In this document: one piece after another, positions 5,700 to 29,410 of the stretch
How the letters are laid out: each line of letters starts with the position of its first letter
How positions within the stretch are numbered: the stretch's first letter is position 1
Assembly: GCA_040881785.1 (NCBI GenBank)
Contig: JBBECO010000221.1
Coordinates: forward strand, 1,865 to 65,864
Source of the DNA: Vicinamibacterales bacterium
Lineage (GTDB): Bacteria; Acidobacteriota; Vicinamibacteria; Vicinamibacterales; 2-12-FULL-66-21
DNA length: 64,000 nucleotides
Reading direction: 5' to 3'
Notes under the pieces: model-generated
The model's database searches: none
Seen by the model: the letters and a program-made list of their open reading frames with translations, nothing else
What the model was told of the DNA's origin: nothing
Made by a program: the position numbers and the translations under genes

Positions 5700-5980
5700 T
5701 GAAGGCAATCACTCGCTTCTCGTCTGGTGCCTCCGATCTGGGCACGGCTCTTGGCGAGGTCCTCAGCGTCCCGCGACACGACACGGACCTGCCGTACATC
5801 GTTGTGGTCAACGCGGCCTCGGCTTCATTGGTCCTCTTCGTCGAGAGCGCGATAGGTCGAATCGCGCTATCGGTGAGCGTTGGGAAATTCTCGACGGTTG
5901 TCCGCGAAAGATTCCCAACTCAGCCTCGAAGCCGAGTCTCCACGGGATGACGGCTCTGGTTGCTGGCGCCTGAGCCGTCC

Positions 5981-6613
5981 TCATGCCGCGCGGGCGGCGC
6001 GCGACAGAGCCGTGACGACCATGTCGTCGGTGACTTCAGAGAAGTCGTCAAAGAACTGTCCGACGGCGTGGAAGTCAGCCGGCGCAGATAGACAAACCAC
6101 CTCATCTGCTTCTGCCTCGATCTGCGCCAGCGACTGAGCGGGTGCGACCCCGATGGCCACGATGAGCTTCAGCGGCTTGCGTGCGCGTACCGACCGAATC
6201 GCCGCGAGCATCGACGATCCGGTGGCGATCCCGTCATCGACTATCACAACGATGCGGCCCGTCGGATCGATGGCCTTCTGAGCGCGCGTGTACATCTCCC
6301 GGCGCGCGCGGATGACGCCTTGCTGCGCCCGGACTTCGTCGCGCATGTACTCCTCGTCGGCCACGTCGAAGTAGCGGCCCTTCAGGACGGTCCCGGCTTC
6401 GTCCACGGCGCCAATCGCCAGCTCGGGTTGCCCTGGTGCCCGCAACTTCCGTACGAGCACGACGTCGAGCTCGCCCTCGAGCGCGTCCGCGATGGTCCGA
6501 GCCATGGGCACCGCGCCGCGGGGCACACCCAGGATGAGGGGCTTCTGGCCCTTGTACGCAGCCAACCGTCCGGCCAGTTGCTTCGCCGCGTCGTCGCGAT
6601 TCTTGAAACGCAT
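5981..6613 (-). CDS. phosphoribosyltransferase family protein
   Basis: MRFKNRDDAAKQLAGRL...ILGVPRGAVPMA...IVVIVDDGIATGSSMLAA (PRPP-binding loop). ATG at 6613. Confidence 0.85.
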   Translation of the reverse strand: MRFKNRDDAAKQLAGRLAAYKGQKPLILGVPRGAVPMARTIADALEGELDVVLVRKLRAPGQPELAIGAVDEAGTVLKGRYFDVADEEYMRDEVRAQQGVIRARREMYTRAQKAIDPTGRIVVIVDDGIATGSSMLAAIRSVRARKPLKLIVAIGVAPAQSLAQIEAEADEVVCLSAPADFHAVGQFFDDFSEVTDDMVVTALSRAARAA

Positions 6614-6853
6614 CACATCGACTCCAGGCTCTGCACGCGAACTATGTTGGTTCACTCACAAGATGGCAATTGGCATACCAGATACTTGGATGTGAATACT
6701 CCCTGACTCTTGCGGATTCGATCACGTCGGCGGCAACGTCTGAAAAGTTCGCAGCGTTTCGGCAGAATTCCCCAGCGCGAACGTCGCGCGCGTCTTCCCG
6801 GTTCGCGCCGATTCCCTCGACTGCTGGTACCGCCCTTGCCTTTCTGGCTCCGT

Positions 6854-7519
6854 ATGCTGGCCGCAGCCGTCGCGGTGATCCTGTCAGCGGCCCTCGGCGC
6901 CGCGACTGAGCCGCGTTCGACGTCTCCGCGCCTGCGCGAGGGTCGCCCCCCGGCGCAGATTCCCCAGGCGTTCGGCGGTGGTGAAGTCGTGCTCGAGTTG
7001 ACCGTCGATTCGCGCGGAGGCGTCTCGCGGATCGAGCGTATTCGCGTGACACCGCCCTATGCGGATCTCGTGGTCAACGCGGCGGCCCAGTGGCGATTCG
7101 AGCCCGCAACCGTCGCGATTGAGGGACGCGCAACGTCTGTTGCCGCGTCAGTCCTCGTGGTCGCGATCTTCCGGCCAGCCTCGCTCTACGCGGGGCCGGC
7201 GCCTGGCGTTCCGCCTCAAGTCCTCGGAGCGCCATCAGCGCGCGTCCCCCGTGTGGAGTCGATCGTCATGCCTGCGTATCCACCGACGGCCACCGGAGAC
7301 GGGATCGTTCTGGTCGAGATCGAAATGAGTGGCCACGCGGAACCACGCAGCTATCGCATCGTCGGCCCGGCATCAGGCTTCGACACGGCGGCGCTCGATG
7401 CAGTGCGCTCTTGGCGATTCGGAGCGCCGCAAACCCCTGACGTCCCTGACCGGCTCTTCGCGTACGCGGTGGTCGGCTTCCGCACTCCACTCGCACCCGG
7501 CACGCGACGGCGACAGTGA
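6854..7519 (+). CDS. exported protein with two TonB-C-like domains
   Basis: Signal-like MLAAAVAVILSAALGAA. Two repeats resemble TonB C-terminal modules (GGEVVLELTVDSRGGVSRIERI... and DGIVLVEIEMSGHAEPRSYRIV...AALDAVRSWRF). Confidence 0.45.
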   Translation: MLAAAVAVILSAALGAATEPRSTSPRLREGRPPAQIPQAFGGGEVVLELTVDSRGGVSRIERIRVTPPYADLVVNAAAQWRFEPATVAIEGRATSVAASVLVVAIFRPASLYAGPAPGVPPQVLGAPSARVPRVESIVMPAYPPTATGDGIVLVEIEMSGHAEPRSYRIVGPASGFDTAALDAVRSWRFGAPQTPDVPDRLFAYAVVGFRTPLAPGTRRRQ

Positions 7520-7546
7520 TTGCAGAGAGAAACCAGAGGTATCGAT

Positions 7547-8248
7547 ATGACAACCGCAGCCTTGACCGGCGCCGACGTGCGACTCAGGGACACTGTGATC
7601 CACGAGCTCGACTGGGATTCCGAAGTGGACGACAGCGCAATTGGCGTCACCGCCAAGGACGGCGTCGTCACGCTGACCGGCTTCATCGACAGCTACGCCG
7701 GCAAACTGGCCGCGGAACGGGTCGTCAAGCGGGTGCGCGGCGTGCGCGCCGTCGCCAACGACATCATCGTCCGGTTGAAAGCGGACGTGACAGATTCAGA
7801 CATCGCGGCCGCAGCGGCTGTGGCGCTGAAGTTCAGGCCAGGCATTCCACCCAATGTTCAGGCCACCGTCCACGACGGCCATGTCACCCTCACAGGACAC
7901 GTCGAATGGCTGCATCAGACGGAGCAGGCAGAAGTGGCCGTGCGACACATTGGCGGCGTCCGCGGCGTCGTGAATCACATCGAGGTTGCGACAAGGACCG
8001 TGCAACGCGACGTCAGGCGCCGGATCGTCCAGTCCCTGCACCGCAACGCCGACCTCGATGCGCGTCACGTCGAAGTGGCGGTGACGGACGACATCGTGAC
8101 CCTGACCGGGACGGTCGGCTCCTGGTCGCAACGTGAGGCCGCGGAGCGCGGTGCCGGCAGCGCGCCGGGGATTCGGCAGGTGGACAACCAGATTCGTGTC
8201 GTGCCGCAAGAACCACACGAGTTCGAGCCACCAGACGAGGTCTGTTGA
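7547..8248 (+). CDS. BON domain-containing protein (three BON repeats)
   Basis: AIGVTAKDGVVTLTGFIDSY..., VHDGHVTLTGHVEW... and VTDDIVTLTGTVGSW... The ATG at 7547 lies inside the longer ORF 7520-8248. Confidence 0.85.
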   Translation: MTTAALTGADVRLRDTVIHELDWDSEVDDSAIGVTAKDGVVTLTGFIDSYAGKLAAERVVKRVRGVRAVANDIIVRLKADVTDSDIAAAAAVALKFRPGIPPNVQATVHDGHVTLTGHVEWLHQTEQAEVAVRHIGGVRGVVNHIEVATRTVQRDVRRRIVQSLHRNADLDARHVEVAVTDDIVTLTGTVGSWSQREAAERGAGSAPGIRQVDNQIRVVPQEPHEFEPPDEVC

Positions 8249-8513
8249 AGCACGAGCGCGAACGAGGAGTCGACGGAGATCGTCATGCGCATCACAGCGC
8301 GGCGGTCGTTTTTCTTGCTGAATTGAGCGGGTTCACCTCAGCGGGCAGAGTGCGGATTTCTTCGTGAGAGGAACGAATTTTTCCGTGTTTCTTGTTTCGC
8401 TGCTCGGCGTGCGTCGCGCTTTCGCGGGGACCGCCCGCCTGTGAGAGGCAGGAGCCGGCGGGCACAGCAATTGCCCTTTGTCTTCAAGCAGCGGCAAACG
8501 CAGCGAGAAGATC

Positions 8514-9524
8514 ATGGGCACCGCCCCTCCTGTGATGACACCCACGTCAGAGGCTCTGGCTGACGTGGCTTTCCGACATGTCGCCGCTTGCATCAACGGA
8601 TCGGCGATGAGCGAGCTGGTCGTGCCACACGCGCTCGCCATCGCCCGCGCATTCGGGGGGCGATTGACGATCGTTCGCGTCCTGGAATGCGTGACTGCGG
8701 GCGACGTACCGGCCGACCCGCTCGAGTGGGACATCCGGCGACGGGAAGCGCACGAACAGGTCGAGCGCCTTGTACGAGAAAGCAATGCCGATGTACCGAT
8801 AGCGGGAGATGTCGTCGAGGGCCGAGCCGCTGAGGAGATCTGTCTTTGGGCTGAACGCCACCAGGTCGATCTCATGGTCTTGTGCCGATGCGACGCCCCA
8901 GATAGGGAGGAGTGGCCGCTGGCGAGACCGCTTCTCGATCAGATGCCGGGATCGGTGCTCATCGTTCATGCACCGGTCGCCACGCAGACATCGGTCGGTC
9001 GGTATCGGCGCCTGCTTGTCCCCGTTGATGGTTCTTCCCGCGCTGAGAGCGCCGTCCCACTCGCGGCTCGCGTCGCCGCTAGCGTCGCCGCCGAACTACT
9101 CGTGGCACACGTAGTCCCTGGCCCCGGACTGACGGAGGTCGGCCCGCCCGACGCTGAGGATGTCGAGCTTCGCGAACGGATCGCGCAGCGTAATCTGCGT
9201 GTGGCGACGACGTACCTCGACGGCCTGAGAGCTCGATTCGCAACAACCGGGTCACCGCCTCGCACCATCGTCGTCCGAGATGGTGACGTGCGCACGAGCC
9301 TCGAACGCCTCGTGGAGGATGAAAGCGTCGACCTCGTCGTGTTGTCGTCGCATGGGCATTCTGGGCGTGCGGGTGTGCCCTACGGCAGCGTTACTGCGGA
9401 TTTGGTTCTCTACAGCTCGGTTCCGCTCCTGATCGTCCGACCACGCACGACGGGCACACACGCGCACCAGGTCATGGCGAAGGCGTCATTGGCCGGTCGC
9501 CTGCCGCACCAAGCCGTGTCATGA
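8514..9524 (+). CDS. universal stress protein, tandem UspA domains
   Basis: Two Usp halves: ...RLTIVRVLE...DLMVLC... and RRLLVPVDGSSRAESAV...VDLVVLSSHGHSGR...GSVT. The stop overlaps the next gene's ATG (ATGA at 9521-9524). The start is uncertain (8478, 8514 or 8535). Confidence 0.8.
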   Translation: MGTAPPVMTPTSEALADVAFRHVAACINGSAMSELVVPHALAIARAFGGRLTIVRVLECVTAGDVPADPLEWDIRRREAHEQVERLVRESNADVPIAGDVVEGRAAEEICLWAERHQVDLMVLCRCDAPDREEWPLARPLLDQMPGSVLIVHAPVATQTSVGRYRRLLVPVDGSSRAESAVPLAARVAASVAAELLVAHVVPGPGLTEVGPPDAEDVELRERIAQRNLRVATTYLDGLRARFATTGSPPRTIVVRDGDVRTSLERLVEDESVDLVVLSSHGHSGRAGVPYGSVTADLVLYSSVPLLIVRPRTTGTHAHQVMAKASLAGRLPHQAVS

Positions 9525-12500
9525 GCGCGCCGCTCGTCGAGCCGGCACATGCGGCTCTCGAAACGGCGGCTCGTGAGCTGAGTGAGCGCCACACAGCCGT
9601 CGAATCGCGCGCGCGGCCGCTCGACTCACTGCTGCGAGTCTCGGCTCTCACCGCGTGGCTCGATCGCGCACGCGCCGCGCTCGCCGACCCGGCTCCCGAG
9701 GCGGCCAAGGCAGCAGAATGGCTCCTTGACAACGATTACCTGGTCGAGCGTGCGATTCGGCAGATCGAAGAAGATCTCCCCCCTGGTTTCTATCGCCGAC
9801 TACCCGGGCTCGCGCAGGGTGAGGAGGAACGCCGTCTGCCACGCGCGTATGCACTCACACACGGCTTCCTGCGGGCGTCACACCTGCACGTGTCGCTGCC
9901 AGGTGCGATCGCGTTCGCGCAGGCATACCAAAGGAACGGCACGTGGCTCACGATCGCCGAATTGTGGGCCTTTCCGGCGCTCCTCCGGCTGGCGTCGCTA
10001 GAACTGCTCGTCACAGCGCTTGCTCGGCTCGTGCCGGTCCTGGAATCGCCGATCCTCGTCCCGACGCTCACTCGCCTGCCCGTCGACGATACTGAATGCG
10101 TCGCCCGATCGCTCACGAACCTCGGTGCAATCGCCGCTATCCCGTGGAAGACGTTCTTCGAAGCGACCAGCCGTGTCGAAGCCATCCTGCGAACCGACCC
10201 GGCTGGCGCGTACGAGCGGATGGATTTCCAGACGCGGGATCGATACCGCGTCGCCGTGGAGGGAATCGCCGCCTGGTCAGGTCGACCGGAAGCCGAGACC
10301 GCACTGCAGGTCATCGCACAGTCCGATCGTCTGAGAACGCAAGGTCCAGATTGCGGCCACGTTGGGTACTGGCTGATCGGCGAGGGGCGTGGCACGTTCG
10401 AGCGGATCGTCGGCTGCCGCCCGCCCGCACGAGTCTCGTTCTGGCGATGGAGCTTCCGGCACGCCGGTCCCATCTATGCCACCGCGCTGGTCTCGGGCAC
10501 GGCAGCGGCGCTGGCGCTGCCCGTGCTCTACCTGTGGGCGATCGGCGCATCGGTCACGGGCGTCATCCTGGGCAGCGCCATCGCTCTTCTTCCCGGATCG
10601 GTCGTCGCGGTCACGATGGTGCACTGGGTAGTGACGCGCTTGGTGCCTCCACGAGTACTGCCGAAACTCGATTTCGATCGGGGGATCCCGCCCGATTGGA
10701 CGACCGCCGTCGTGATACCGGCGCTCGTGGGTAGCACGAAGGAGGCCGAGGACCTGCTGGCACAACTCGAGGAACACTACCTCGCCAATCCAGCATCGTC
10801 TGTGCAGTTCGCCCTCCTGACCGATCCACCTGATGCGCCGGTGCAGCGCATGCCCAACGACGAAGCCATCGAGGCGGCACTCGTCGACGGCATTCGGAAT
10901 CTCAACGCCCGACATGCTGACAATCGCTTTCACGTGCTCCATCGCCACCGCCGGTTGAATCCATCCGAGGGCTGCTGGATGGGATGGGAGCGCAAACGGG
11001 GCAAGCTGGAACAGTTCAACCGTCTCGTGCTGGGCGATCCGGGCGGGGGCTTCGACGTGTACGAGGGACGCCTGGAGGCACTGACGCAGATCCGGTTCGT
11101 CGTGACCGTCGACGCCGATACGCGCCTGCCGCAAGGCGCTGTGGCGCGTCTTGTGGGAGCACTTGCGCACCCGCTCAATCGCCCACAGTTCGACGAGGCA
11201 ACGGGTCGCGTGCACTCGGGATATACCGTCGTCCAACCGCGCGTCGAGATCTCACCTGAAAGCGGGAACCGCTCGCTCTTCGCGAGGCTCTACTCCGGCG
11301 ACACGGCCATCGACATCTATTCACGCGCCGTGTCCGACGTGTATCAGGACCTACTTGGCTCCGGCATCTACATTGGCAAGGGTATCTATGACGTGGAGGC
11401 ATTCCAGAGGAGCGTCGAGGGTCGGGTGCCGGAGAACGCACTCGCCAGTCACGACCTCTTCGAAGGCGCGCATGGTCGCGTGGCACTGGCCACCGACATC
11501 GTGGTTTACGAGAACTTCCCGAGTCAGTACGAAGTATTCGCGCGCCGATGGCATCGCTGGATGCGAGGCGACTGGCAGTTGCTGCCGTGGCTCGGCAGGT
11601 ATGTGCCCGGTGCCGCAGGAACACGCATCCCAAACGGGCTGCCGTACCTGGAACGCTGGAAGATTGCCGACAACCTGCGTCGCAGCTTGATGGCGCCCAC
11701 GCTCCTCGCGTTGCTGATCGCGGGCTGGCTCGTGCTCCCGGGCAGTCCGTGGGTGTGGACCACGCTCGCATTACTCGCACCAGCAGCCGCGTTGTTCACC
11801 GACCTCGTCACGGGCCTCGCAGGTGGACGTCGTCGCGGCGCTGTGCGAGGCGTGCTCCGGAACTTCGTCGACCACGCAGGCCGGTGGATTCTGACCATCG
11901 TATTCCTGGTGCAGGATGCGGTCCTCTGCATTGATGCAATCCTCAGGACGCTTTGGCGACTCTACGCCAGCCATCGCAAGCTCCTCGAATGGACGACGGC
12001 GGCGCACGTGGCGCATCACTTCAACGGGGGGGCGCCCGCGGACGCATGGCGGCGGCTGTGGGTGGGACCAGCCACCGCTGTCGTCCTGGGTGGCGCTGTC
12101 CTTGCCGCGCGGCCGGATGCGTTGGCGACCGCCGCGCCACTGCTCATCCTGTGGGTCGCCTCGCCCATGATCGCGTGGCGAACCGGCCACGCGCGCGCGA
12201 CCGAACGCGAGCCTCTGGACGAGAAATCCATCCTGTACTTGCGCCGATTGGCGCGCCGCACGTGGCTGTTCTTCGAGCGCTTCGCGGGACCCGACGATCA
12301 CTGGCTTCCGCCGGACAATTATCAGGAGCACCCGGGCGGCGAGCTCGCCCACCGGACGTCGCCCACCAACACCGGGATGCTCCTGCTCTCGTCGGTCAGC
12401 GCCTGGGATCTCGGGTTCGTCGGATTGCCCGAGCTTGCGGCCCGCGTGCGGAACACGCTCGACACGCTTCATCGCCTCGAACGCCACCACGGGCACTTCT

Positions 12501-15500
12501 TCAACTGGTACGACACGCGAACGCTGATCCCGCTCGAACCGCGGTACGTCTCCACTGTTGATAGCGGCAACCTCGCGGTCAGCCTGCTGACACTCAAAGA
12601 AGCCTGCCGCGAGGCCGCACGTGGTCCTGCCCTCGGAACGCAGCTCTGGAAAGGGCTGCGCGACCTGTTCGATCTCTTGGATACTGCTGCCGAGGATCTG
12701 CCCGCAAGCGGCGAGACCGATGCGCTCCGCTCGGTCGTCCGGGCGCTAGCGATTCGAGCGACAACGATCGCTCACGAGGCCCTCGCAGCGACAACAGACG
12801 CCGACGACCGGACGGCCCTCGATCAACTCGTCACCGCCGCTGTGAACCGGCAAGGCATCCCTTCCAGAACGCTGCAGGACATTCGCGTGTGGGTCGAACG
12901 CATTCACCATCACTGGCGGAGCATGGAGCGAGACGTGGAGACGCTCGCGCCCTGGCTGAGACTGATCGATACGGCGCCAGCTGGCGGCCTCGAATTGGCG
13001 GAACGTCTGCGGCACGTCCTGCCGCCGTCACTCGCTCTCGACGACGTCGCAGAACGCTGTCAGGACGCCCGACACGTGCTGGCCACTGCGACGTCCGAGC
13101 GAGCCGATGACAGCGTGCGTCCTTGGATCGAACGTCTCATCGACGCGGTTGAGGCCGGCGAACGTGGCGCCGCCTCCTTGCGCGACGCGCTGACACAGCT
13201 TGCCGATCGCGCGGAAGCGCTGGCACTCGACATGGACTTTCGGCCGCTCTTCGACGCTGAGCCGAAGTTGTTCCATATCGGTTACAACACAACCGCCGAC
13301 CGGCTCGATCCACATCACTACGATTTGCTCGCAAGCGAGGCGCGGCTGGCCAGCTTCTTCGCGATTGCCAAAGGCGACGTGCCGCTGGAACACTGGTTTC
13401 ATCTCGGCCGCCCGATCACGAGCGTCGGCGGCCGGCTGACGCTCGTGTCGTGGGGTGGCTCGATGTTCGAGTACCTGATGCCCGCGCTGCTGCTCCGCCG
13501 GCATCCGGGCGGGCTGCTCGCTGAGAGCGAGCACGCTGCCGTCGACGCGCACCGCCGCTTCGCACGAGACGCCGGCATTCCCTGGGGAATGTCTGAATCG
13601 GGCTTTGCCTCGCTCGATCTCAGCAACCACTACCGATACCAGGCGTTCGGGGTGCCCACGGTGGGGCTCCGCCGCGGCCTCTCGCGAGAGCTCGTCGTGG
13701 CCCCGTACGCGACAGCCCTGGCGCTCCTGGCACGCCCGCACGACGCCGTCGCGAACCTGCGTGAGCTTGAACGTCTCGGGATGCTCGGACTCTACGGGAT
13801 GTACGAGGCGGCAGACTTTCGTGCGGAGCACGCGACGCGAGAGGCTCGATTCGGAGTCGTTCGATCGTGGATGGCGCATCACCAGGGCATGGCGCTCGCG
13901 GCCATCAACAATGTGCTGTGCAACGACACGCTCGTGCGGCGCTTCCACGCCGACCGACGCGTGCGGACGGTGGAGGTCCTGCTGCAGGAGCGCGTGCCTC
14001 GCGAGCGTCCGACTGAAGCCGCCCGCTCGCGCGAGCGAGCCGAGGCCGCCGCACGCCGGCCTGTACCGGCCCTGCCGGAGGCGTGGGATCCCGCCGGCCC
14101 GCCTGGTGTACCGAAGGTGCAGTTGTTGGGCAACGGCCGGATGTCGTCGTGGATCTCGGAGAGCGGCGCCGGTGCACTCCACTGGCAGGGTCAGGCCCTC
14201 ACGCGATGGATTCCTGATCCCACCCGCGATCACTGCGGCCTCTGGATCTACGTGCGGGACGAGGAAAGCGGGCAGGTCTGGTCCGTCGGACGGCAGCCGA
14301 CGGCCGTTGTCGCAGACGAGGCCGCCTGCATCTTTCACGCGCACCTGGCGGAGTTTCGGCAGCGCAACCATCGCATCGCCATTCGGATGGACGTCGGTGT
14401 CTTGCCGGCCGATGATCTGGAGGCCCGACGTGTCAGCGTCGCCAACGAAGACGACCGACGTCGCACGCTCACCTTGACGACATACGGCGAGGTCGTGCTC
14501 GGACCTCCACGCGACGACGAGCGCCACCCGGCATTCAGCAAGCTGTTCGTGAACAGCGAGTGGCTGCCGGCTGCTCGCGGGGTGTTGTTCACGCGCCGAC
14601 CTCGACACCCGAACGAACGGCCTCCGGTTCTGCTGCATGCCGTGGTCCTCGATCCGTCCCTGCCGGTCGAGGTCACAGGATACGAGACGGACCGCCGTGC
14701 GTTCCTTGGACGGCACGGCAATCCGCGTCGGCCTCGCTCGGTCGTCGAGGGGCTGACCGGCACCGTCGGATGGACGCTCGATCCTATCTTCGCGCTGCAG
14801 GTCCGCGTGATGCTCGATCCTGGCCAACGGGCGGAGCTGTGTTTCGTCACCGCCGCGGCCGGGTCGCGCGAATCGGTGCTCCAATTGGCCGAGCGCTACG
14901 ACGCAACGACCGCAGTGGACTGGGCCATCCAAGACGCGGCGATCAAGGCGGCGCATGAGGCCACTCGGCTCCGGCTCCGGCCATCGGAGCTGCCGGACCT
15001 TCAAACGCTCGCATCACTGCTGCTCGCGCCGCACGCGGCGCTACGTGCCTCAGCGTCCCAGCGAGCCGCCAATCGTCTGGGGCAGTCACGCCTGTGGGGA
15101 ATGGGGATCTCCGGCGATGCACCGATTCTGTTGCTGCGCACGAGCGACCCACACAGCGAACTGCTCCCTGTGCTCGTGCGTGGTCACGAGCTCTGGCGCC
15201 GGCGCGGGCTTCAGGTCGACCTCGTGGTGCTGCGATCAGGAACATCGACGTACGCGGAGCCGCTGCGCGAGCGGTTGACCGATCTGCTGGAGGGCATAGG
15301 GGCACACAGCACGCTCGCAGGGAGCGGCGGGGTGCATTTGGTGATTGCCGATCAGATCCAGGAGGAGGAGGCGCGCCTGCTCGAATGCGTTGCCCGCGTC
15401 GTCCTGGACGACGCGCGAGGAGGTCTGGCACGTCAACTGGTGCCCGCTGTCGAGGCTGCCGATCTCCCGCTATTCGAACCTGTGCACGTTCCGGAGGCGC

Positions 15501-16876
15501 CTCCGGTCGCACACGTCGACTACCCCGGCGACCTGCTGTTCGACAACGGGTTCGGCGGCTTCTCTCCAGACGGACGCGAGTACATCATCCACCTTCCGCC
15601 GGGCTCGCAGACGCCCGCGCCCTGGTGCAACGTACTCGCGAACGACGCCTTCGGTTGCGTCGTGAGCGAATCCGGGCTGGGATTCACGTGGTCGCAGAAC
15701 AGCGGCGACAACCGCCTGACGCCGTGGACCAACGATCCGGTGCTCGATGCGGCGGGCGAGGCCCTGTACCTCCGGGACGAGGAGGATGCGCGCATCTGGA
15801 CGCCGACGCCGAGCCCGGCTGGACGCGACGCGGCGTGTGAGGTTCGCCACGGCGCGGGCTACACGATCTGGGCACAGCGCAGTCACGGATTCGAGCAGCG
15901 GCTCACCGTGTTTGTGCCGCCCGACGGGTCAGTGAAAATCGCGCGGTTTCAGCTCAAGAACCTCTGGAATCGCCCGCGCCGCGTGACGGCAACCTACTAT
16001 GTTGAGTGGCTGCTGGGCGCGCTTCCGAGCGTCGCGCGCCCGCAGATTGTCACCGCATGGGATCCCACCGGCACCTGCCTCCTCGCGTCCTCTGCCTGGA
16101 GCGCGGACTTCGGCGAGCGGGTCGCCTTTCTGACGTCCACGTTGCGGCCGCACGGCGTCACGGCCGACCGGCGGGAATTTCTGGGCCTCGAGGGCGACCT
16201 GGCTGCACCGGCCGCACTGCGTCGCTGGGGCCTCAGCGGCCGCGCGGACAGCGCGACGGATCCATGCGCGTGCTACCAAGTGCATCTCGACGTTGCGGCT
16301 GACGCGTCGGCGGAAGCCGTCTTCATCCTCGGCCAGGGAGACACCCGTCAGCAGGCGCTCGATCTCGCGCAAGGCTGGCGCGATCCGGCACGCGTTGACG
16401 GTGCGTGGGCCGCGCTGCACGCGCATTGGGATCACGTCCTTGGGGCCGTCCGGGCGCGTACGCCGGATCCAGCGCTCGATCTGATGGTCAACCGCTGGTG
16501 GCTCTATCAGACGATGGCGTCACGGGTACTCGCGCGCGCCGGGTTCTATCAGGCGGGTGGCGCGATCGGGTTCCGCGATCAACTGCAGGACGTGCTTGCA
16601 CTACTGCATGCGGACCCCGCGCGCACGCGCGCGCACATCCTCGCGTGCGCGGCGCGGCAGTTCGAGGAAGGCGATGTCCTGCACTGGTGGCATCCACCGT
16701 CCGGCCGCGGCGTCCGCACGCGGTGCTCCGATGATCTCCTTTGGCTGCCGTGGGCAGCCATCTCGTACATCGAGGCGACGGGTGACCGGACGATCCTCGA
16801 CGAAGAGGTGCCGTTCCTGCGAGCGCCGGCGCTCGCGCCGCATGAGAAGGTCCGGTACGCGCGGGTCGAAGTGTAG
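9521..16876 (+). CDS. cyclic beta-1,2-glucan synthase-like protein (NdvB/ChvB/Cgs type), N-terminal 2,451 codons ending at an in-frame TAG
   Basis: Multi-TM N-terminal region and a GT84-like core (VVTVDADTRLP, QPRV). A large central region leads into GH94 phosphorylase-like sequence. The frame continues into 16928-18007 after the TAG at 16874-16876. Confidence 0.85.
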   Translation: MSAPLVEPAHAALETAARELSERHTAVESRARPLDSLLRVSALTAWLDRARAALADPAPEAAKAAEWLLDNDYLVERAIRQIEEDLPPGFYRRLPGLAQGEEERRLPRAYALTHGFLRASHLHVSLPGAIAFAQAYQRNGTWLTIAELWAFPALLRLASLELLVTALARLVPVLESPILVPTLTRLPVDDTECVARSLTNLGAIAAIPWKTFFEATSRVEAILRTDPAGAYERMDFQTRDRYRVAVEGIAAWSGRPEAETALQVIAQSDRLRTQGPDCGHVGYWLIGEGRGTFERIVGCRPPARVSFWRWSFRHAGPIYATALVSGTAAALALPVLYLWAIGASVTGVILGSAIALLPGSVVAVTMVHWVVTRLVPPRVLPKLDFDRGIPPDWTTAVVIPALVGSTKEAEDLLAQLEEHYLANPASSVQFALLTDPPDAPVQRMPNDEAIEAALVDGIRNLNARHADNRFHVLHRHRRLNPSEGCWMGWERKRGKLEQFNRLVLGDPGGGFDVYEGRLEALTQIRFVVTVDADTRLPQGAVARLVGALAHPLNRPQFDEATGRVHSGYTVVQPRVEISPESGNRSLFARLYSGDTAIDIYSRAVSDVYQDLLGSGIYIGKGIYDVEAFQRSVEGRVPENALASHDLFEGAHGRVALATDIVVYENFPSQYEVFARRWHRWMRGDWQLLPWLGRYVPGAAGTRIPNGLPYLERWKIADNLRRSLMAPTLLALLIAGWLVLPGSPWVWTTLALLAPAAALFTDLVTGLAGGRRRGAVRGVLRNFVDHAGRWILTIVFLVQDAVLCIDAILRTLWRLYASHRKLLEWTTAAHVAHHFNGGAPADAWRRLWVGPATAVVLGGAVLAARPDALATAAPLLILWVASPMIAWRTGHARATEREPLDEKSILYLRRLARRTWLFFERFAGPDDHWLPPDNYQEHPGGELAHRTSPTNTGMLLLSSVSAWDLGFVGLPELAARVRNTLDTLHRLERHHGHFFNWYDTRTLIPLEPRYVSTVDSGNLAVSLLTLKEACREAARGPALGTQLWKGLRDLFDLLDTAAEDLPASGETDALRSVVRALAIRATTIAHEALAATTDADDRTALDQLVTAAVNRQGIPSRTLQDIRVWVERIHHHWRSMERDVETLAPWLRLIDTAPAGGLELAERLRHVLPPSLALDDVAERCQDARHVLATATSERADDSVRPWIERLIDAVEAGERGAASLRDALTQLADRAEALALDMDFRPLFDAEPKLFHIGYNTTADRLDPHHYDLLASEARLASFFAIAKGDVPLEHWFHLGRPITSVGGRLTLVSWGGSMFEYLMPALLLRRHPGGLLAESEHAAVDAHRRFARDAGIPWGMSESGFASLDLSNHYRYQAFGVPTVGLRRGLSRELVVAPYATALALLARPHDAVANLRELERLGMLGLYGMYEAADFRAEHATREARFGVVRSWMAHHQGMALAAINNVLCNDTLVRRFHADRRVRTVEVLLQERVPRERPTEAARSRERAEAAARRPVPALPEAWDPAGPPGVPKVQLLGNGRMSSWISESGAGALHWQGQALTRWIPDPTRDHCGLWIYVRDEESGQVWSVGRQPTAVVADEAACIFHAHLAEFRQRNHRIAIRMDVGVLPADDLEARRVSVANEDDRRRTLTLTTYGEVVLGPPRDDERHPAFSKLFVNSEWLPAARGVLFTRRPRHPNERPPVLLHAVVLDPSLPVEVTGYETDRRAFLGRHGNPRRPRSVVEGLTGTVGWTLDPIFALQVRVMLDPGQRAELCFVTAAAGSRESVLQLAERYDATTAVDWAIQDAAIKAAHEATRLRLRPSELPDLQTLASLLLAPHAALRASASQRAANRLGQSRLWGMGISGDAPILLLRTSDPHSELLPVLVRGHELWRRRGLQVDLVVLRSGTSTYAEPLRERLTDLLEGIGAHSTLAGSGGVHLVIADQIQEEEARLLECVARVVLDDARGGLARQLVPAVEAADLPLFEPVHVPEAPPVAHVDYPGDLLFDNGFGGFSPDGREYIIHLPPGSQTPAPWCNVLANDAFGCVVSESGLGFTWSQNSGDNRLTPWTNDPVLDAAGEALYLRDEEDARIWTPTPSPAGRDAACEVRHGAGYTIWAQRSHGFEQRLTVFVPPDGSVKIARFQLKNLWNRPRRVTATYYVEWLLGALPSVARPQIVTAWDPTGTCLLASSAWSADFGERVAFLTSTLRPHGVTADRREFLGLEGDLAAPAALRRWGLSGRADSATDPCACYQVHLDVAADASAEAVFILGQGDTRQQALDLAQGWRDPARVDGAWAALHAHWDHVLGAVRARTPDPALDLMVNRWWLYQTMASRVLARAGFYQAGGAIGFRDQLQDVLALLHADPARTRAHILACAARQFEEGDVLHWWHPPSGRGVRTRCSDDLLWLPWAAISYIEATGDRTILDEEVPFLRAPALAPHEKVRYARVEV

Positions 16877-16927
16877 CCCGATCGTCGCTGCCTCTTCGAG
16901 CATTGCCAGCGTGCGCTCGAGCGTGCC

Positions 16928-18007
16928 GTGACGCACGGCGCCCACGGCCTGCCCCTGATTGGCGCCGGCGACTGGAACGACGGGATGGATCGAGTCGGCG
17001 CGCAGGGGAAGGGCGAAAGCGTGTGGCTCGCCTGGTTCGCGATCGCTGTGATGAACGGCTTCGCCGCCCTGTGCCGGGACACTCGACATGACGAGCTCGG
17101 CGAACAATGGCAGCGTCGCGCGCGTGAGATGGCTCGAGCCGTCGAAGAGACGGCGTGGGACGGCGAATGGTACGTGCGCGCATTCGACGATGATGGACGT
17201 CCCTGGGGATCGCGCCAGAACGACGAGTGCCGCATCGACGCGCTCGCCCAGTCCTGGGCGGTGTTGAGCGACGTCGCCGATCCTGAACGGGCGCGGCAGG
17301 CGGTGCTGGCAGCGGAACGCGAGCTGCTGGACGAACGCGAACGACTGATCCGATTGCTCTGGCCTCCCTTCGACCGCACACCGCGTGACCCGGGATATAT
17401 CAAGGCCTATCCACCCGGCATTCGCGAGAACGGAGGCCAGTACACCCATGCGGCCGCGTGGCTCGGGCTCGCCTACGCGGCGCTGCATGACGCCACACGC
17501 GCGTCTCGCGTGCTGCAGTGGCTGAACCCGATCACACGGAGTGCGACGCGAGAGGCCGCCGAGCATTACAGAACGGAACCGTATGTCCTCGCCGCGGACA
17601 TTGGTGCGGTGGTACCGCATGCCGGCCGCGGGGGGTGGACCTGGTACACGGGATCGGCCGCGTGGACTTGGCGACTGGCGGTCGAAGGCCTCCTCGGCCT
17701 TCGGCTCCGCAATGGACGACTGCAGATCGATCCGTGTCTGCCACCAGGGTGGGATCGGTTCGAGGCTGAGGTTCGTCGCAACGGCGGAATGATGGCGATC
17801 ACGGTGGACGTGTCATCGGAGATGACCGCGGGTCGCCGCGAGATCGTCGTCGACAACGTGCCCTGCGAAGAAGGCGACGTGGCATTTCCTCCTGATGGCG
17901 CCACGCGCTCCGTGCACGTCCGCATTGGCCGCCAGGACATGCAACTGCCGACGCCCGTTGGGACAGGCGACATGAGCTCGTGCGAGCGTGTCTCAGACCT
18001 CACCTGA
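16928..18007 (+). CDS. C-terminal GH94 (cellobiose/chitobiose-phosphorylase-like) part of the same glucan synthase, same frame as 9521-16876
   Basis: HGLPLIGAGDWNDGMDRVG (GH94 catalytic region) and ...ENGGQYTHAAAW... The homologous sequence PDRRCLFEHCQRALERAV starts immediately after the TAG, before any start codon. Confidence 0.8.
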   Translation: MTHGAHGLPLIGAGDWNDGMDRVGAQGKGESVWLAWFAIAVMNGFAALCRDTRHDELGEQWQRRAREMARAVEETAWDGEWYVRAFDDDGRPWGSRQNDECRIDALAQSWAVLSDVADPERARQAVLAAERELLDERERLIRLLWPPFDRTPRDPGYIKAYPPGIRENGGQYTHAAAWLGLAYAALHDATRASRVLQWLNPITRSATREAAEHYRTEPYVLAADIGAVVPHAGRGGWTWYTGSAAWTWRLAVEGLLGLRLRNGRLQIDPCLPPGWDRFEAEVRRNGGMMAITVDVSSEMTAGRREIVVDNVPCEEGDVAFPPDGATRSVHVRIGRQDMQLPTPVGTGDMSSCERVSDLT

Positions 18008-20113: not shown

Positions 20114-20464
20114 TCAGCGTTGGCGCCGCTCAGCAGCGGGCAGCATGAGCGGATCCTTCAGATGCAGGATCTGCTTCACGCCATCGGCCGACACGACCGC
20201 GACCGTCTCGACGCCCTTTGGACCTTCCTGAAAGTAGACCTCCCTCGGGTGCCTGATGAGGTGGTTCAGCCCACTCATAGCCACATCGAGAAGATCGTCT
20301 TGAGCATCGTAGGTGACGCCCAGTAACGGCAGCCACTCCGCCACAATCTGATCACCGAGTTCGAGCGACGCCGCCTCCACTTCGACTCGTTTGCCGACCA
20401 GGGCGTCCGCCAAGCCGTCGAAGAACGCTCGCCACTCTGCCTGAGGGATGGTTCGTGATGCCAT
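20114..20464 (-). CDS. DUF5335-like small protein
   Basis: MASRTIPQAEWRAFFDGL...VTYDAQDDLLDVAMSGLNHLIRHPREVYF...LHLKDPLMLP. The family assignment is from memory only. Confidence 0.45.
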   Translation of the reverse strand: MASRTIPQAEWRAFFDGLADALVGKRVEVEAASLELGDQIVAEWLPLLGVTYDAQDDLLDVAMSGLNHLIRHPREVYFQEGPKGVETVAVVSADGVKQILHLKDPLMLPAAERRQR

Positions 20465-20998
20465 GTCAGTCCCCTCGCCAGTCATCAGCACACCAGGGTT
20501 GCACGATCATCGCCATGCTCGTGGCGCCTACGAACTCGTCATCGGCCAGCTGCTGCACGGTGCAGTCGAGCAGAAACGGCCTATTGCGTGCGAGCTCTGT
20601 GCATGGTCGGAAGCCGCTGATGGCGTCGTCGTCGAATCCGAATCGTGGCTCGACAATACGTACCCGCGTCCGGCAGCCACTGCTGAGACTGTCAGTCGTG
20701 CCGAATATTTCGCGAGCGGTGCGAACGATTCAGCAGTGTGGCAAGGCATCCGATCTAGCGGGTCACTAAATGCCGGAACGAAACGAAGCGCAGTCTTTGG
20801 CACATTTTCTGCTTTCTCATCGCCCATCGGGGTAACGCCCCTGGGTACGGTTTGATGAACCGGGAGTGTGACGGAAAGTCGGACGCGAAAGCTTCCAACG
20901 CCGCAACCACAAACCGGTGAACGCAGACCGGCACAGCAGGGATGACGTGCCCCGACTTTCATGTACGGGCACGGTTGGATGACGATCCACCGTCGCTC

Positions 20999-21352
20999 CA
21001 CTGCGCACGTCCTCGGCGCGGCGGCGAAGCACGCCGCCGGCAGCACGCTCAACGCCAACATGGTGGCCGAACCCGCCGTACCAATGTCCCACTCGAAGTT
21101 CCCGCCGCGGATATCCGGCCCGGGGACGAACTCGAACGTGCGGCTGCCGACGTCGGCGCCCTCGACTGTGGCTCCACACAGCTCGGCGCACGCGTGCACG
21201 CTCGTCACGTGCTGTGGCCGCAGCCCGGGCTCCCGCCGTCTCTGCCTCGCATTGATGACGCGGACCGGCTCGCCGTGCGGCGCCGCCAGCGCCACCGCAT
21301 AGCGGACGATCGTGCCGCTGCCAGACATCTGCGCGCCATCGATGGTGACCAC
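20999..21352 (-). pseudogene. rtcA: RNA 3'-terminal phosphate cyclase (RtcA) N-terminal fragment, about 120 of about 340 aa
   Basis: VVTIDGAQMSGSGTIVRYAVALAAPHGEPVRVINARQRRREPGLRPQHVTSVHACAELCGATVEGADVGSRTFEFVPGPDIRGGNFEWDIGTAGSATMLALSVLPA aligns with the E. coli RtcA N-terminus. Homology stops near 21000, and the C-terminal half with the adenylylated His is absent. Confidence 0.75.
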
Positions 21353-21363
21353 GAGCGTACCGA

Positions 21364-21663
21364 CTATGCCCGACCAAAGGTGATGCGCAACTCGCTCTTG
21401 GCGCGCTCGAGAATCCGTCGTCGCTTGGGACTGAGATTGCGCCCTGCGCGATTGATGTAGAAGTTCAGCATGGACATCGCCGATTGATAGGCGCCGGCCT
21501 TGCGCCGTGAGCTGAGTTCGGCGGACCGCTTCAGCGAGCGCGCAATGGCCCTGGGACTGGACCATGTGAACACTCCGGACTCCAGATCGAGAGCATTGCT
21601 CGTCTCGGTCACACGCTGCGACCAGTACTTCGGCTGCGCCCGTGATGTCCGGAGAGATGTCAT
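21364..21663 (-). CDS. DUF3175 domain-containing protein
   Basis: 99 aa: KYWSQRVTETSNALDLESGVFTW...SLKRSAELSSRRKAGAYQSAMSMLNFYINRAGRNL...LERAKSELR. The ATG at 21663 overlaps the stop of the upstream remnant. Confidence 0.7.
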   Translation of the reverse strand: MTSLRTSRAQPKYWSQRVTETSNALDLESGVFTWSSPRAIARSLKRSAELSSRRKAGAYQSAMSMLNFYINRAGRNLSPKRRRILERAKSELRITFGRA

Positions 21664-22120
21664 CGTGTTCCTGCGAGGATGATGTCGCGCGCCTTCGGCC
21701 CGCAGTTGAGCACCCGGTCCAGCGTGGACACGTTGTAGCGAACATCTCCTCACAGCTGCGGATACACGGGAGGCCGGAATGTCGCCAGCGCGAGTTCGAG
21801 ACGCCGCGCACCGCGCTTCTCCGGATCGATGTACTTTGCCGCAACGGTCAACGTGAGATACGTGTCGGCCTTCAGCGCCTCACACACATTCGCGATCAGA
21901 TCGGCTCCCTGACCGCCAACGCCCAGCTCCGATTGCAGGTGCAGCGCCGTCGGGACCCCCAAGGTGACCCACAGATGCGATTTGAGCCGGTTTCGATGCA
22001 ACCATCCTGCCCTTGCGGGAACTGCACGCGATCCAGCAGGACCAGCGCGTCCGCGTGAAGGGCCTTGTAGAAGAAGCCGGGCCACGGCAAAAAGATCGGC
22101 TGATGTGTCGTCACGATCAT
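21660..22120 (-). pseudogene. WbqC-family protein pseudogene (frameshift, internal loss and in-frame TGA)
   Basis: N-terminus MIVTTHQPIFLPWPGFFYKALHADALVLLDRVQF in one frame. NRLKSHLWVTLGVP...GADLIANVCEALKADTYL...RPPVYPQL* lies in another frame. After the TGA comes GDVRYNVSTLDRVLNCGPKARDIIL, a WbqC-like C-terminus. Confidence 0.6.
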
Positions 22121-22191
22121 AACGATTTCGTTGCCCGATCGCGGTGCCGCGGACTCGACGTGACAAGAGTCGTGGTCTTGGGCGTCTGCGC

Positions 22192-22392
22192 CATCAGTCG
22201 TTCATAGATCCGGATTAACTTCTTGGCCTGTTCATCCTCGGTAAAGCGGCGCGCTGTTTCGAGAGCGTTCCTTGCAAACCCGCGCCGTGATGCTGGGTCG
22301 CTCAGGGCCATGTCCACGCGTGCGGCACACGCGCGCGCCGACGCATTGGGTGCGATCAACAGGCCGTTCTTCCCGTTGATCACGATGTCCGT
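22192..22392 (-). pseudogene. family-1 glycosyltransferase C-terminal fragment
   Basis: TDIVINGKNGLLIAPNASARACAARVDMALSDPASRRGFARNALETARRFTEDEQAKKLIRIYERLM is a typical GT1 C-terminal tail. It is fused in-frame to an unrelated N-terminal fragment in ORF 22117-22782. Confidence 0.5.
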
Positions 22393-22683
22393 GAACGCGT
22401 CACCCGTACGTCCGGGATGAAAGATGTAACACTCGAGGGCCATCGATCGCTGGACGCCGGAAATCGCCGCCAGCATCTCCGGATAGCACTGCGCACCGTC
22501 TTCGAGGCGCGTCATCCTGTTCCCGCCAACCATGGTGATGGCAAGCGCGGACGATAGCGCGTGCACGAACTCGCATGAAGTGAGGTCGACACGACGGTCG
22601 AACCGATAGACGACCGTCGGTGTGGCCAGTGCCACGATCCCAACTACACGAGGACGACGCCCACTCCAGCCACGATCAAGCCA
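22393..22683 (-). pseudogene. phospholipase D / cardiolipin synthase N-terminal fragment
   Basis: VGGNRMTRLEDGAQCYPEMLAAISGVQRSMALECYIFHPGRTGDAF matches the region preceding the first HKD motif. No HKD motif follows. Confidence 0.55.
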
Positions 22684-22751
22684 CACGTCACGAACTCCAC
22701 CATTCACACCCGAGCGTCCTGTACGCCGGAGAGACATGTCCGTCCGTCTTC

Positions 22752-23645
22752 TTACGACCGCCTCACGATGAGGACGGGGCACGCTGACGTCCGAATCACG
22801 TGGTGTGTGGTCGATCCGAAAACCAGCAGATCGAGTACACCCCGGCCATGTACGCCCATCACGATCAGATCCGATTGCCGCTCGGTGGCGTATCGGAGTA
22901 TCTCGCGATACGCTCGACCCTCGACGATGGCAGTGTCCACCGTGCAGTAGGTGCGGGCCTGCTCCGGAATCAGCCCATGCAGTTTGCGCCGGGCATCGGC
23001 CGCAGTCGCTTCGCGAACACGGGAGAGGTCGGGCACAGGCACGGCTGGTTCGCCGACCAATACCGGAGGGAATTCGACAACGTGCAACACTGTGAGCTGT
23101 GCGTCGGCCTCCTCGGCCATGTTGATGGCATACGCCAGCGCATCGAGCGCGCTCTCCGAAAAATCAACGGCGCAGAGAATCCGACGGAACTGGATCGGCG
23201 AGCCGGCCGGGACGTCGGGAGCTCGCGGCGGAACGACCAACGTCGGACAGGTTGCTTTCCGAATTACCTTCTCCGTCACGGAGCCGAGAAAGAGCCGCTG
23301 AAAGCCCGACCGCCCGTGTGTGCCGACCACGAGCAGGTCAGCGTGCCTCGCACCGACCTGTGCCAGGATTTCCTCGTGGATGTAAGGCGCCTCCTGAATG
23401 TCGAACTCGACGCGAACGTCTCGCGGCACGGCGGACGCCATTCGCCGCAGGTCGCTCATGAGTCGTTCCCGATCGGCATCCTCCAGCACCAGCGGCGGAA
23501 GATCCAAGGTGGGGAGGTTCGCGAACACATACAGCAGCGTCAGCCGAGCCTCGTACCAGCGAGCGATCGCTGCAGCGTGATCGAGCGCATGCTGCGAGAT
23601 CTCGGAGAAATCAACCGGACAGAGTACGTGAACCATGCGGATCAT
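22752..23645 (-). CDS. universal stress protein, tandem UspA domains
   Basis: VHVLCPVDFSEISQHALDHAA...DLLVVGTHGRSGFQRLFLGSVTEKV and ILCAVDFSESALDAL...DLIVMGVHGRGVLDLLVFGSTT. Confidence 0.85.
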   Translation of the reverse strand: MIRMVHVLCPVDFSEISQHALDHAAAIARWYEARLTLLYVFANLPTLDLPPLVLEDADRERLMSDLRRMASAVPRDVRVEFDIQEAPYIHEEILAQVGARHADLLVVGTHGRSGFQRLFLGSVTEKVIRKATCPTLVVPPRAPDVPAGSPIQFRRILCAVDFSESALDALAYAINMAEEADAQLTVLHVVEFPPVLVGEPAVPVPDLSRVREATAADARRKLHGLIPEQARTYCTVDTAIVEGRAYREILRYATERQSDLIVMGVHGRGVLDLLVFGSTTHHVIRTSACPVLIVRRS

Positions 23646-26057: not shown

Positions 26058-26364
26058 TCACGGAACGACGGCGATATGGTCCTCGACCTCGTTGACTCCG
26101 GGCGCTGCCCACGCCGCGCGCCGCGCCTCGTCGCGCTCGAACCACGAGTGCACATTGCCGGACAGGGTGACCTTGCTGTCGGCAACGGCGACGTAGACGC
26201 CGAGCGCCACCCGCTCGGCGGTCGCTTTCTCCGAGTAGGTCCTGACGTCACCGCGCAGCCGTCACCACGCCGTTGTCGACCGACACGCCAATATCCGCGG
26301 CGTCGATGCTCGGCTCCCAGTCCAGGGCGTTCTGGACATGCTGCTGGAAGTCTCTGTCTGTCAT
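26058..26364 (-). pseudogene. BON-domain gene remnant, paralog of 2023-2673, with a 1-nt frameshift and loss of about 130 internal codons
   Basis: MTDRDFQQHVQNALDWEPSIDAADIGVSVDNGVVT, then a frameshift, then LRGDVRTYSEKATAERVALGVY joined directly to VAVADSKVTLSGNVHSWFERDEARRAAWAAPGVNEVEDHIAVVP*. Both ends are collinear with the intact paralog. Confidence 0.8.
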
Positions 26365-26592
26365 CGTCGTTCTCCAATGCAGGTAGTTGCCTGACGGAAT
26401 CACGAGCGAGCATCGCAACCTTCGTACCTGGGGGGAGGCAAGGCAGCCCGATTGCGAGCGCGGACGCCAGCCGCTCAGAGATCCCCACGCGAGCGGCGCT
26501 GAGCACCTCATGCGCAGTCTCTCGCAATGGCTGCGAAAGAATCCCGGCTCGACAACTGCCGGCCGAAGGGAACTGTCATGTCCCGTCCCCAC

Positions 26593-26934
26593 TCAACGTG
26601 AGCTTGATGACGACCTCGTCCTGAAAACGGTCATCCTCAACCCGTCGTAGGCGAACCGCGCGCGAATCCCGTGTTCGCGCGCCATCGCCGTCAGGGCAAC
26701 GGCGATTTCGCGCGGCTCCGAGCGAACGATCCCCGATCCGCAATGGGTGAACACGGCATTCTCGACGCCGGCCGCCGCACACCACTCGAGTTGTGTCCCA
26801 ATGGCGGCGTGTCCGATGCGGACGGCGCCACGCCGTCGAATCAGCGGCCGATCGAGCGTCGCGCCATCACCAACGTACAGATCGACGTCTCCCGGGGCTG
26901 CAACTGGATTCGGCAGGCGGGCAAGGTCGGGCAC
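26593..26934 (-). pseudogene. MBL-fold metallo-hydrolase C-terminal fragment
   Basis: LYVGDGATLDRPLIRRRGAVRIGHAAIGTQLEWCAAAGVENAVFTHCGSGIVR...AREHGIRARFAYDGL resembles the last about 100 aa of PhnP-like MBL hydrolases. The HxHxDH region is absent. Confidence 0.45.
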
Positions 26935-27024
26935 GACCTCACACTCTGTTCGTTCGCGTTCGGGCAGCGGTCAGCCTCGCACGGCTCGGCGTTGATGAAC
27001 GCCGCCTCGTGCCGCGATGGTGTG

Positions 27025-27946: not shown

Positions 27947-27967
27947 GTCTGCGTCCTCGCGGCCGAC

Positions 27968-29398: not shown

Positions 29399-29410
29399 AA
29401 CCCACCTGCT

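Follow-up and report, generated by a model that had tools for sequence, protein, structure and literature searches.

A three-substitution patch private to one assembly places an in-frame TAG in a cyclic β-1,2-glucan synthase gene of a Vicinamibacterales bacterium

Introduction

The closest described relative of the gene considered here is the cyclic β-1,2-glucan synthase (Cgs) of A. tumefaciens (PMC10901819). The two share the same order of domains, a glycosyltransferase, a GH144/GH189-like cyclase and a GH94 region, and are of the same size (2,828 aa for the intact gene described below, about 2,800-2,830 for the family member). Residue D2528 of the A. tumefaciens enzyme is the catalytic acid of its GH94 domain (PMC10901819, PMC11842490). 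The mutation D2528A has only a minor effect, this residue being dispensable for hypo-osmotic growth, and the C-terminal truncations 1-1540/1587 and 1-1846 abolish function (PMC10901819).

A cgs gene with a TAG in its reading frame also invites comparison with several other known systems. To programmed UAG read-through (amber suppression, pyrrolysine) the likeness is superficial only, consisting in an in-frame TAG with homology on both sides. Segregating nonsense alleles and young pseudogenes resemble it in that a single premature stop interrupts a gene free of other decay, and in that the same population also carries an intact allele; ordinary nonsense polymorphisms, however, are single substitutions, whereas the copy described here carries three linked transversions within 25 nt, so that a multi-nucleotide event would be needed. 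Consensus and strain-bubble errors in metagenome-assembled genomes (MAGs) resemble it in yielding a patch of several substitutions that is private to one assembly, function-blind and GC-rich, with one GGT>GGG change, reported to be the strongest systematic-error signature of Illumina sequencing (Meacham et al. 2011, PMC3295828).

Results

The cgs gene and its internal stop

The window, a 64,000-nt stretch of an NCBI Vicinamibacterales MAG contig, carries cgs on the forward strand at 9521-18007, as judged by translation, Pfam architecture and matches to Cgs structures. Its ATG overlaps the TGA of an upstream universal-stress-protein gene (Usp; 8607-9524, forward strand, from the gene call in L083 and a Pfam Usp match) in an ATGA at 9521-9524. 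Translation of 9521-18007 gives 2,829 codons with a terminal TGA and a single internal stop, the TAG at codon 2452 (16874-16876, forward strand), for which an independent assembly and the outgroup L082 have TCG (Ser). The peptide ...RYARVEV*PDRRCLFEHCQRALERAVTHGAHGLPLIGAGDWNDGMDRVG was recovered exactly, and the local reading is ...GTC GAA GTG TAG CCC GAT CGT....

The Pfam matches follow each other in the order Glyco_trans_2_3, Glycoamylase, GH94 supersandwich and GH94 catalytic. The glycosyltransferase core (GT2-fold/GT84; 11099-11791, forward strand, residues 527-757) is detected by Glyco_trans_2_3 with 39.4 bits at a cut-off of 27, and the cyclization domain (GH144/GH189-like, 'Glycoamylase'; 13316-13951, forward strand, residues 1266-1477) by PF10091 with 64.5 bits. 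The PDB entry 8WY1, deposited as 'Glycosyltransferase 36' and presumably the T. italicus cyclization domain, matches the protein with 401.7 bits. In the GH94 region PF06165 reaches 476 bits, and the catalytic (α/α)6-barrel domain (PF17167; 16424-17698, forward strand) is broken by the TAG. The A. tumefaciens Cgs structures 8RF0 and 8RF9 match with 1442.8 bits upstream of the stop, in two stretches, and with 681 bits across the stop region. Alignment to them places the conserved GDWND motif at 16967-16981 of the forward strand (codons 2483-2487), its second Asp opposite D2528 (8RF0 SEQRES index), the catalytic acid. The protein has three features of the Cgs family, namely the GT2-fold (GT84) domain, the cyclization domain and a C-terminal GH94 domain with GDWND; six transmembrane helices and the synthesis of cyclic β-1,2-glucan further characterize the family as a whole. 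Unlike A. tumefaciens, the host is not an α-proteobacterium but an uncultured member of the Vicinamibacterales (Acidobacteriota), and unlike the A. tumefaciens gene the window copy has TAG at codon 2452 and valines at 2444 and 2449; the allele assembled from the same sequencing run is an ordinary family member.

A first-pass annotation had described one in-frame TAG splitting an otherwise continuous gene, with GH94 sequence resuming right after the stop and no frameshift or further stop, and this description holds. The ORFs 9521-16876 (2,451 aa) and 16928-18007 (359 aa) share a frame, as 16928-9521 is divisible by 3, and there is neither a frameshift nor a second stop in the 8.5 kb of cgs. Positions 1-151 of the PF17167 profile match just 5' of the TAG (105.8 bits) and positions 158-420 directly 3' of it (248.9 bits). 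The alignment of the 120 best homologs passes straight across codon 2452 in every case; the column holds G, S, T or A, with Ser in the closest homolog, and a stop in none of the 120. The 376 codons 3' of the TAG are undecayed. At the level of sequence, the coding continuity across the TAG is not a matter of chance, and the stop cuts the GH94 catalytic domain mid-fold, ahead of GDWND, which lies 31-35 codons further 3' (35 for the catalytic Asp). Translation that stopped at the TAG would yield a protein with the glycosyltransferase, the cyclase and most of the GH94 region but no GDWND; on this point the Pfam layout and the 8RF0/8RF9 alignment agree with the first reading, which had the synthase and most of the scaffold retained.

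Comparison with an independent assembly of the same run

As comparator we used the Logan assembly of SRA run SRR27977658, which represents the same strain. Over the 33,374 nt compared, it differs from the window at 4 positions. The 27-kb contig SRR27977658_21169 matches window positions 1-25183, the only differences being an ordinary intergenic transition at 4010 and three clustered sites in cgs, and two further contigs of the run are 100% identical to 26301-29648 and 36827-41669. The three cgs differences were found against L083 and confirmed on L087, with 4010 as the sole other difference. SRR27977658_21169 runs unbroken through the site of the TAG with the intact allele: cgs is called there as a single gene of 2,828 aa, in which the codons altered in the window encode Asp, Phe and Ser, the last being TCG at codon 2452. 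The first-pass annotation had looked to the reads for a sense codon at this site, and in surrogate form such a codon, within an intact ORF, is what the Logan assembly provides.

Variation of the strain between runs amounts to 0.1-0.3%, and this includes a clustered block, namely 5 differences in 90 nt at 41104-41193 that are common to two other runs and represent natural clustered variation in the population. The sibling runs of SRR27977658 include SRR27977660 and SRR27977661. A scan of 185,579 species genomes with the C-terminal region retrieved outgroups only, the best match being 63% identical, and no genome of the same species. A search of JGI metagenomes with a 49-nt pattern, in which the three variable sites were set to N, gave no match, and a literature search for SRR27977658 found nothing. 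Exact-product look-ups in indexed assemblies, for the 2,451-aa product and the ORFs starting at 16928, 16985 and 17021, returned no record and revealed no independent assembly with the TAG haplotype, a weak negative, as the contigs of other runs are short. The 73,662-nt NCBI contig, which carries MEX1129426.1, MEX1129439.1 and MEX1129446.1, is represented in the protein collection by neighbouring proteins, while neither the 2,451-aa nor the 359-aa product occurs there as an exact match, which fits NCBI having flagged cgs as a pseudogene.

Three linked substitutions around the stop

The three substitutions lie in a patch of 25 nt on the forward strand (16851-16875). They are an A>T change at 16851, which turns codon 2444 from GAC into GTC (Asp to Val), a T>G change at 16865, which turns codon 2449 from TTC into GTC (Phe to Val), and the C>A change at 16875, which turns codon 2452 from TCG into TAG (Ser to stop). 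The first-pass annotation was right that the TAG is the only stop, but it missed the two adjoining aberrant codons and their linkage to it. Codon 2444 is D or E in 116 of the 120 homologs and codon 2449 is F or Y in 115, with V at either position in none. In simulation, the probability that 3 of the 4 differences fall inside 25 nt of 33,374 is about 6e-6. In the outgroup L082, which is 84% identical, the three sites read A, T and C, so that all three window alleles are derived.

All three substitutions are transversions. Judged by the residues they produce, two non-conservative valines and a stop, they are function-blind. The change at 16865 is a GGT>GGG motif, and each of the three sites is preceded by GG or GGC when one of the two strands is read, compared with 15.7% of gene positions, a lead that was recognized post hoc.

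Some local sources of the patch were rejected. Templated mutation or a mis-join was discarded because the longest direct or inverted match over a mutated site within 600 nt is 7-8 nt, which is at chance level, and the window contains no second copy of the patch at ≤3 mismatches. Mutagenesis by a diversity-generating retroelement was set aside on inspection, because A is the ancestral base at just one of the three sites.

TAG as a stop codon in the window

Elsewhere in the window TAG serves as a bona fide terminator. RtcB stops at a TAG exactly where its Pfam profile ends, and the products of FtsH and RtcB match NCBI proteins that end at TAG. TAG ends 9 of 38 candidate ORFs, a count of ORFs picked by length and GC3 that includes the cgs TAG and some unverified picks. 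Genome-wide reassignment of TAG was rejected: apart from the one in cgs, the in-frame TAG junctions mark ordinary gene ends or belong to shadow frames, and this codon terminates both RtcB and FtsH.

Discussion

Since the three radical substitutions are linked within 25 nt, they point to one local event, either an error or a multi-base mutation, and not to gradual decay. If the codon were decoded as an amino acid, by programmed read-through or suppression, a full-length Cgs would be made. In favour of this, family-like sequence resumes directly 3' of the TAG, and the base after the stop is a C. In E. coli, a C in this position makes for a weaker termination context. Yet the stop is unconserved, being found in none of the 120 homologs and replaced by TCG in the same population and in L082, it uses a codon that terminates RtcB and FtsH nearby, and read-through would leave the two linked radical missense changes unexplained. 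Known cases of programmed UAG read-through also differ in what surrounds the codon: positions 16700-17200 gave no Rfam match at E≤1, the 131-nt segment 16860-16990 folds no better than shuffled sequences (MFE z = +1.45), and the window holds no suppressor tRNA, its sole tRNA being Ser-GGA. We regard read-through as extremely unlikely. Still less credible is a natural split, in which a 2,451-aa synthase and a C-terminal fragment restarted at GTG 16928-16930 (forward strand) would reassemble into an active enzyme. This GTG, 52 nt past the stop, is indeed the first in-frame ATG, GTG or TTG after the TAG, as had been noted before, but no Shine-Dalgarno-like sequence precedes it (agcgtgcgctcgagcgtgcc) and a restart there would cost the protein 17 conserved residues, the invariant H2461 and R2464 among them. 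The break moreover lies inside one fold (between profile positions 151 and 158 of PF17167) and away from a domain boundary, and the same population carries an intact allele. The arrangement that the first-pass annotation had envisaged as an alternative, orthologs that end here and are followed by a separate gene with its own start and ribosome-binding site, was not borne out: none of the 120 homologs ends at codon 2452, and there is no such start.

Of the origins proposed at the outset (nonsense mutation, error or read-through), the last is thereby removed. On balance we lean towards the TAG being an error of consensus or assembly, local to the deposited MAG contig, where error-bearing reads or a wrong graph path may have been taken over a short stretch, giving the 25-nt patch. 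A technical cause rather than a real minor allele is most likely, as inferred from the assemblies. The variant behaves as an artefact would: the independent Logan assembly of the same data lacks it, and it is clustered and function-blind. Changes blind to function resemble random base errors and are unlike variation filtered by selection, which supports an error, and the lack of any other lesion in 8.5 kb counts in the same direction. The GG context typical of Illumina errors is suggestive, a post hoc lead and no proof; unlike the described GGT errors (PMC3295828), the error-prone motifs of the window lie on opposite strands, so that a single strand-specific error mode cannot cover all three sites. 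Against an error, a short-read graph assembler needs k-mers carrying all three changes, so reads with this haplotype probably exist, and random errors rarely yield such k-mers at assembling coverage. The transition at 4010 shows that assemblies can pick different real alleles at polymorphic sites, and the natural clustered variation at 41104-41193 likewise speaks against an error. These points favour instead a real and recent minority or alternative haplotype, a reading that we take seriously without thinking it probable. One lineage would have acquired all three transversions at once, through a multi-nucleotide mutation such as an error-prone repair patch. Cells with this haplotype would make a Cgs ending at residue 2451, without the second GH94 half-barrel and the catalytic Asp, and would coexist with cells carrying the intact allele. 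That the contig was assembled with the patch, presumably from supporting k-mers, that strain variation between runs is of the order given above and that the downstream codons are undecayed, as expected of a very young allele, are all in keeping with such a haplotype, and by analogy with D2528A (PMC10901819) the loss of the phosphorylase could be tolerated. On the other side, it takes a rare kind of mutation to place a stop and, at conserved sites, two residues never seen there in homologs within 25 nt of an otherwise clean 8.5 kb. Nearby repeats offer no template for the changes, the intact allele sits on an unbroken contig through the site, and the indexed assemblies have no record of any of the three plausible downstream gene products of a TAG haplotype. 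Given the A. tumefaciens truncations that abolish function, loss of the half-barrel may also be null and not neutral. That a real haplotype arose in the soil population from one error-prone-polymerase event and was kept because phosphorylase loss usefully alters glucan size or export seems very unlikely to us.

Whichever of the two accounts for the patch, the TAG is not a property of cgs in this organism; it is confined to a single assembly and reveals no new coding mechanism. Under the favoured reading of a consensus error, the real cell would make a normal full-length Cgs with glycosyltransferase, cyclase and the length-trimming GH94 phosphorylase. For quality control, the case illustrates that single in-frame stops in MAG contigs can mimic recoding or pseudogenization. 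A cheap check, comparison of the contig with a second assembly built independently from its sequencing run, here settles the real gene and exposes three function-blind changes in 25 nt. Should the haplotype be real, it would offer a minor instance of a wild population in which a multi-nucleotide mutation has produced a null or truncated allele, and if the truncated Cgs had indeed been retained, it would parallel in nature the laboratory mutants of the GP domain.

A stop codon within the GH94 domain of Cgs

The cyclic β-1,2-glucan synthase gene cgs (9521-18007, +) reads GTC GAA GTG TAG CCC GAT at 16865-16882, placing the TAG at 16874-16876. The open reading frames on either side, 9521-16876 (2,451 aa) and 16928-18007 (359 aa), share one frame, and codon 2452 is the sole internal stop among the 2,829 codons of 9521-18007; the first-pass annotation had described both the in-frame TAG and the lack of other stops correctly, and its flanking peptide matches our translation exactly. 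GTG 16928 is, as it also stated, the earliest possible start codon past the TAG. A restart there would omit 17 residues, among them the invariant H2461 and R2464, and no Shine-Dalgarno-like sequence was found upstream of it.

This acidobacterial MAG gene is a typical representative of the Cgs/NdvB/ChvB family. Pfam assigns its product a GT2-type glycosyltransferase (residues 527-757), a 'Glycoamylase' (GH144/GH189-like cyclase) domain (residues 1266-1477) and GH94 supersandwich domains, and it matches PDB entry 8WY1, which we take to be the T. italicus cyclization domain, with 401.7 bits. A scan of species genomes found Cgs homologs in many Acidobacteriota, Chloroflexota, Myxococcota and Proteobacteria. 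The TAG interrupts the Pfam GH94 catalytic domain PF17167, with profile positions 1-151 before it and 158-420 after, such that the split point lies inside one fold and at no domain boundary; the stop-spanning region aligns unbroken with residues 2030-2784 in 8RF9, a structure of Cgs from A. tumefaciens (681 bits). Alignment to the Agrobacterium Cgs structure places the GDWND motif, which there contains the catalytic acid D2528 (PMC10901819, PMC11842490), at codons 2483-2487 (16967-16981, +). Since the TAG cuts PF17167 upstream of this motif, a product ending at the stop would lose half of the (α/α)6 barrel and the catalytic aspartate, in agreement with the active-site loss predicted earlier.

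Homologs and TAG decoding

The first-pass annotation had considered that orthologs might naturally end at the TAG, yet all 120 best database homologs continue through this position and none stops there. The ortholog alignment it proposed yields Ser at codon 2452 in the closest homolog, P0001 (85% identical), in a variable column (G 33, S 31, T 29, A 20 among the 120). Nearby, 116 of these homologs have D/E at codon 2444 and 115 have F/Y at codon 2449, with V in none at either position. The stop is foreign to the Cgs family and most likely also to the organism.

TAG is a stop signal in this organism. It terminates nine of 38 candidate ORFs in the window, which were chosen by length and GC3, the nine including the cgs TAG and unverified picks. 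In RtcB (27971-29398, −) it falls exactly at the final position of the Pfam profile and in FtsH (35713-37602, −) 13 residues past the M41 domain; NCBI lists identical proteins for the two (MEX1129439.1 and MEX1129446.1). Ser-GGA is the sole tRNA within the window. Near the cgs TAG, Rfam gave no match, even at E≤1, and the RNA fold of 16860-16990 was no better than that of shuffled sequence (z = +1.45). Read-through, as entertained in the first-pass annotation, thus finds no backing: the stop is unconserved, TAG ends RtcB and FtsH, and no recoding element lies nearby.

Comparison with an independent assembly

Through exact-protein look-ups of genes neighbouring cgs, we located the same strain in the Logan assemblies of SRA runs SRR27977658, SRR27977660 and SRR27977661. 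Contig SRR27977658_21169 (27 kb) covers the entire locus, with the gene called as a single 2,828-aa product; the same sequenced population demonstrably has an intact cgs allele. Compared to window 1-25183, this contig shows only four differences (4010, 16851, 16865, 16875). The window has GTC (Val) for GAC (Asp) at 16851 in codon 2444, GTC (Val) for TTC (Phe) at 16865 in codon 2449, and TAG for TCG (Ser) at 16875 in codon 2452. Two more SRR27977658 contigs match window 26301-29648 and 36827-41669 at 100% identity, giving 33,374 nt compared in total, and 4010 (window G, Logan A), isolated in an intergenic spacer, is the sole other difference in these 33.4 kb.

Four differences placed at random in 33,374 nt would put three within 25 nt with a probability of 6e-6. 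An outgroup contig (84% nucleotide identity), which encodes P0001, reads A at 16851, T at 16865 and C at 16875; the window alleles are therefore derived. The stop belongs to one local event that also wrecks two conserved residues in an otherwise identical background. Together with the intact allele, this rules out a natural split, a conserved recoding site, whose stop would recur in homologs (0 of 120), and an old pseudogene.

Origin of the three changes

Two of the three options in the first-pass annotation remain, error and recent mutation; read-through and a split gene are, even jointly, very improbable. We lean towards the deposited contig carrying a consensus or assembly error, which would have produced the patch 16851-16875. 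All three changes are transversions, tightly clustered and blind to function, and the Logan contig is unbroken across the patch. One of them is GGT>GGG, a textbook Illumina systematic error (PMC3295828), and, in a post hoc count, GG or GGC precedes all three sites on one of the two strands, compared to 15.7% of gene positions. A real, young minority haplotype arising from one multi-nucleotide mutation is a possibility we hold more tentatively. The graph assembler would have required k-mers bearing the patch, the ordinary SNP at 4010 also separates the two assemblies, and strain variation between runs amounts to 0.1-0.3%, part of it a natural cluster with five differences across 90 nt (41104-41193). 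A templated origin is disfavoured, as direct and inverted repeats nearby match the mutated patch over at most 8 nt and the window contains no second copy of it.

Truncated cgs products were not found in the protein collection, while 100% identical proteins for FtsH, RtcB and an acyl-CoA ligase are on record, from one 73,662-nt contig, for NCBI 'MAG: Vicinamibacterales bacterium', which would fit an annotation of cgs as a pseudogene.

Genomic context

The intergenic cluster at 41104-41193, upstream of a HATPase_c gene (39811-40914, −), represents a true block of clustered haplotype variation and may be a recombination patch: its five substitutions separate the window and SRR27977658 from contigs of SRR27977660 and SRR27977661, which share them. 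The SRR27977660 contig has two further differences (39410, 39776).

Stress-type genes surround cgs (2023-9524 and 20117-23645), among them BON-domain proteins (2023-2673, −, with bounds from the gene call; 7520-8248), a CBS pair (2718-3176, −), DUF5335 (20117-20491, −) and two Usp genes (8607-9524, ending in a TGA that forms an ATGA overlap with the cgs ATG; 22752-23645, −). These surroundings fit a stress or osmotic island. Genes for RNA and DNA repair also lie near one another, namely RNA 3'-phosphate cyclase (RTC; 20528-21565, −), the ligase RtcB and a PHP-domain polymerase of the PolX type (30369-32309, +).

Further along, a 1,234-aa hybrid sensor kinase (50087-53788, +) has duplicated HisKA/HATPase_c/receiver modules with GAF and PAS domains, its exact product being unrecorded among indexed assemblies. 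Within 55654-61267 (−), a 1,234-aa protein combines Amidase_2 (peptidoglycan amidase) with a C-terminal caspase (Peptidase_C14); its TGA overlaps the ATG of a directly downstream 636-aa ORF (GC3 0.89) without a Pfam match. At 62336-63985 (−) lies a bacterial angiotensin-converting enzyme homolog (Peptidase_M2, profile 46-581, 705 bits).

Consequences of a real haplotype

Mutating the catalytic acid of A. tumefaciens Cgs (D2528A) leads to only a minor phenotype, whereas cutting the enzyme at 1540/1587 or 1846 abolishes function, which suggests that its C-terminal half has a scaffolding role (PMC10901819). If the haplotype is real, its product, ending at residue 2451, would keep half a barrel and could resemble either the D2528A point mutant or the null truncations.
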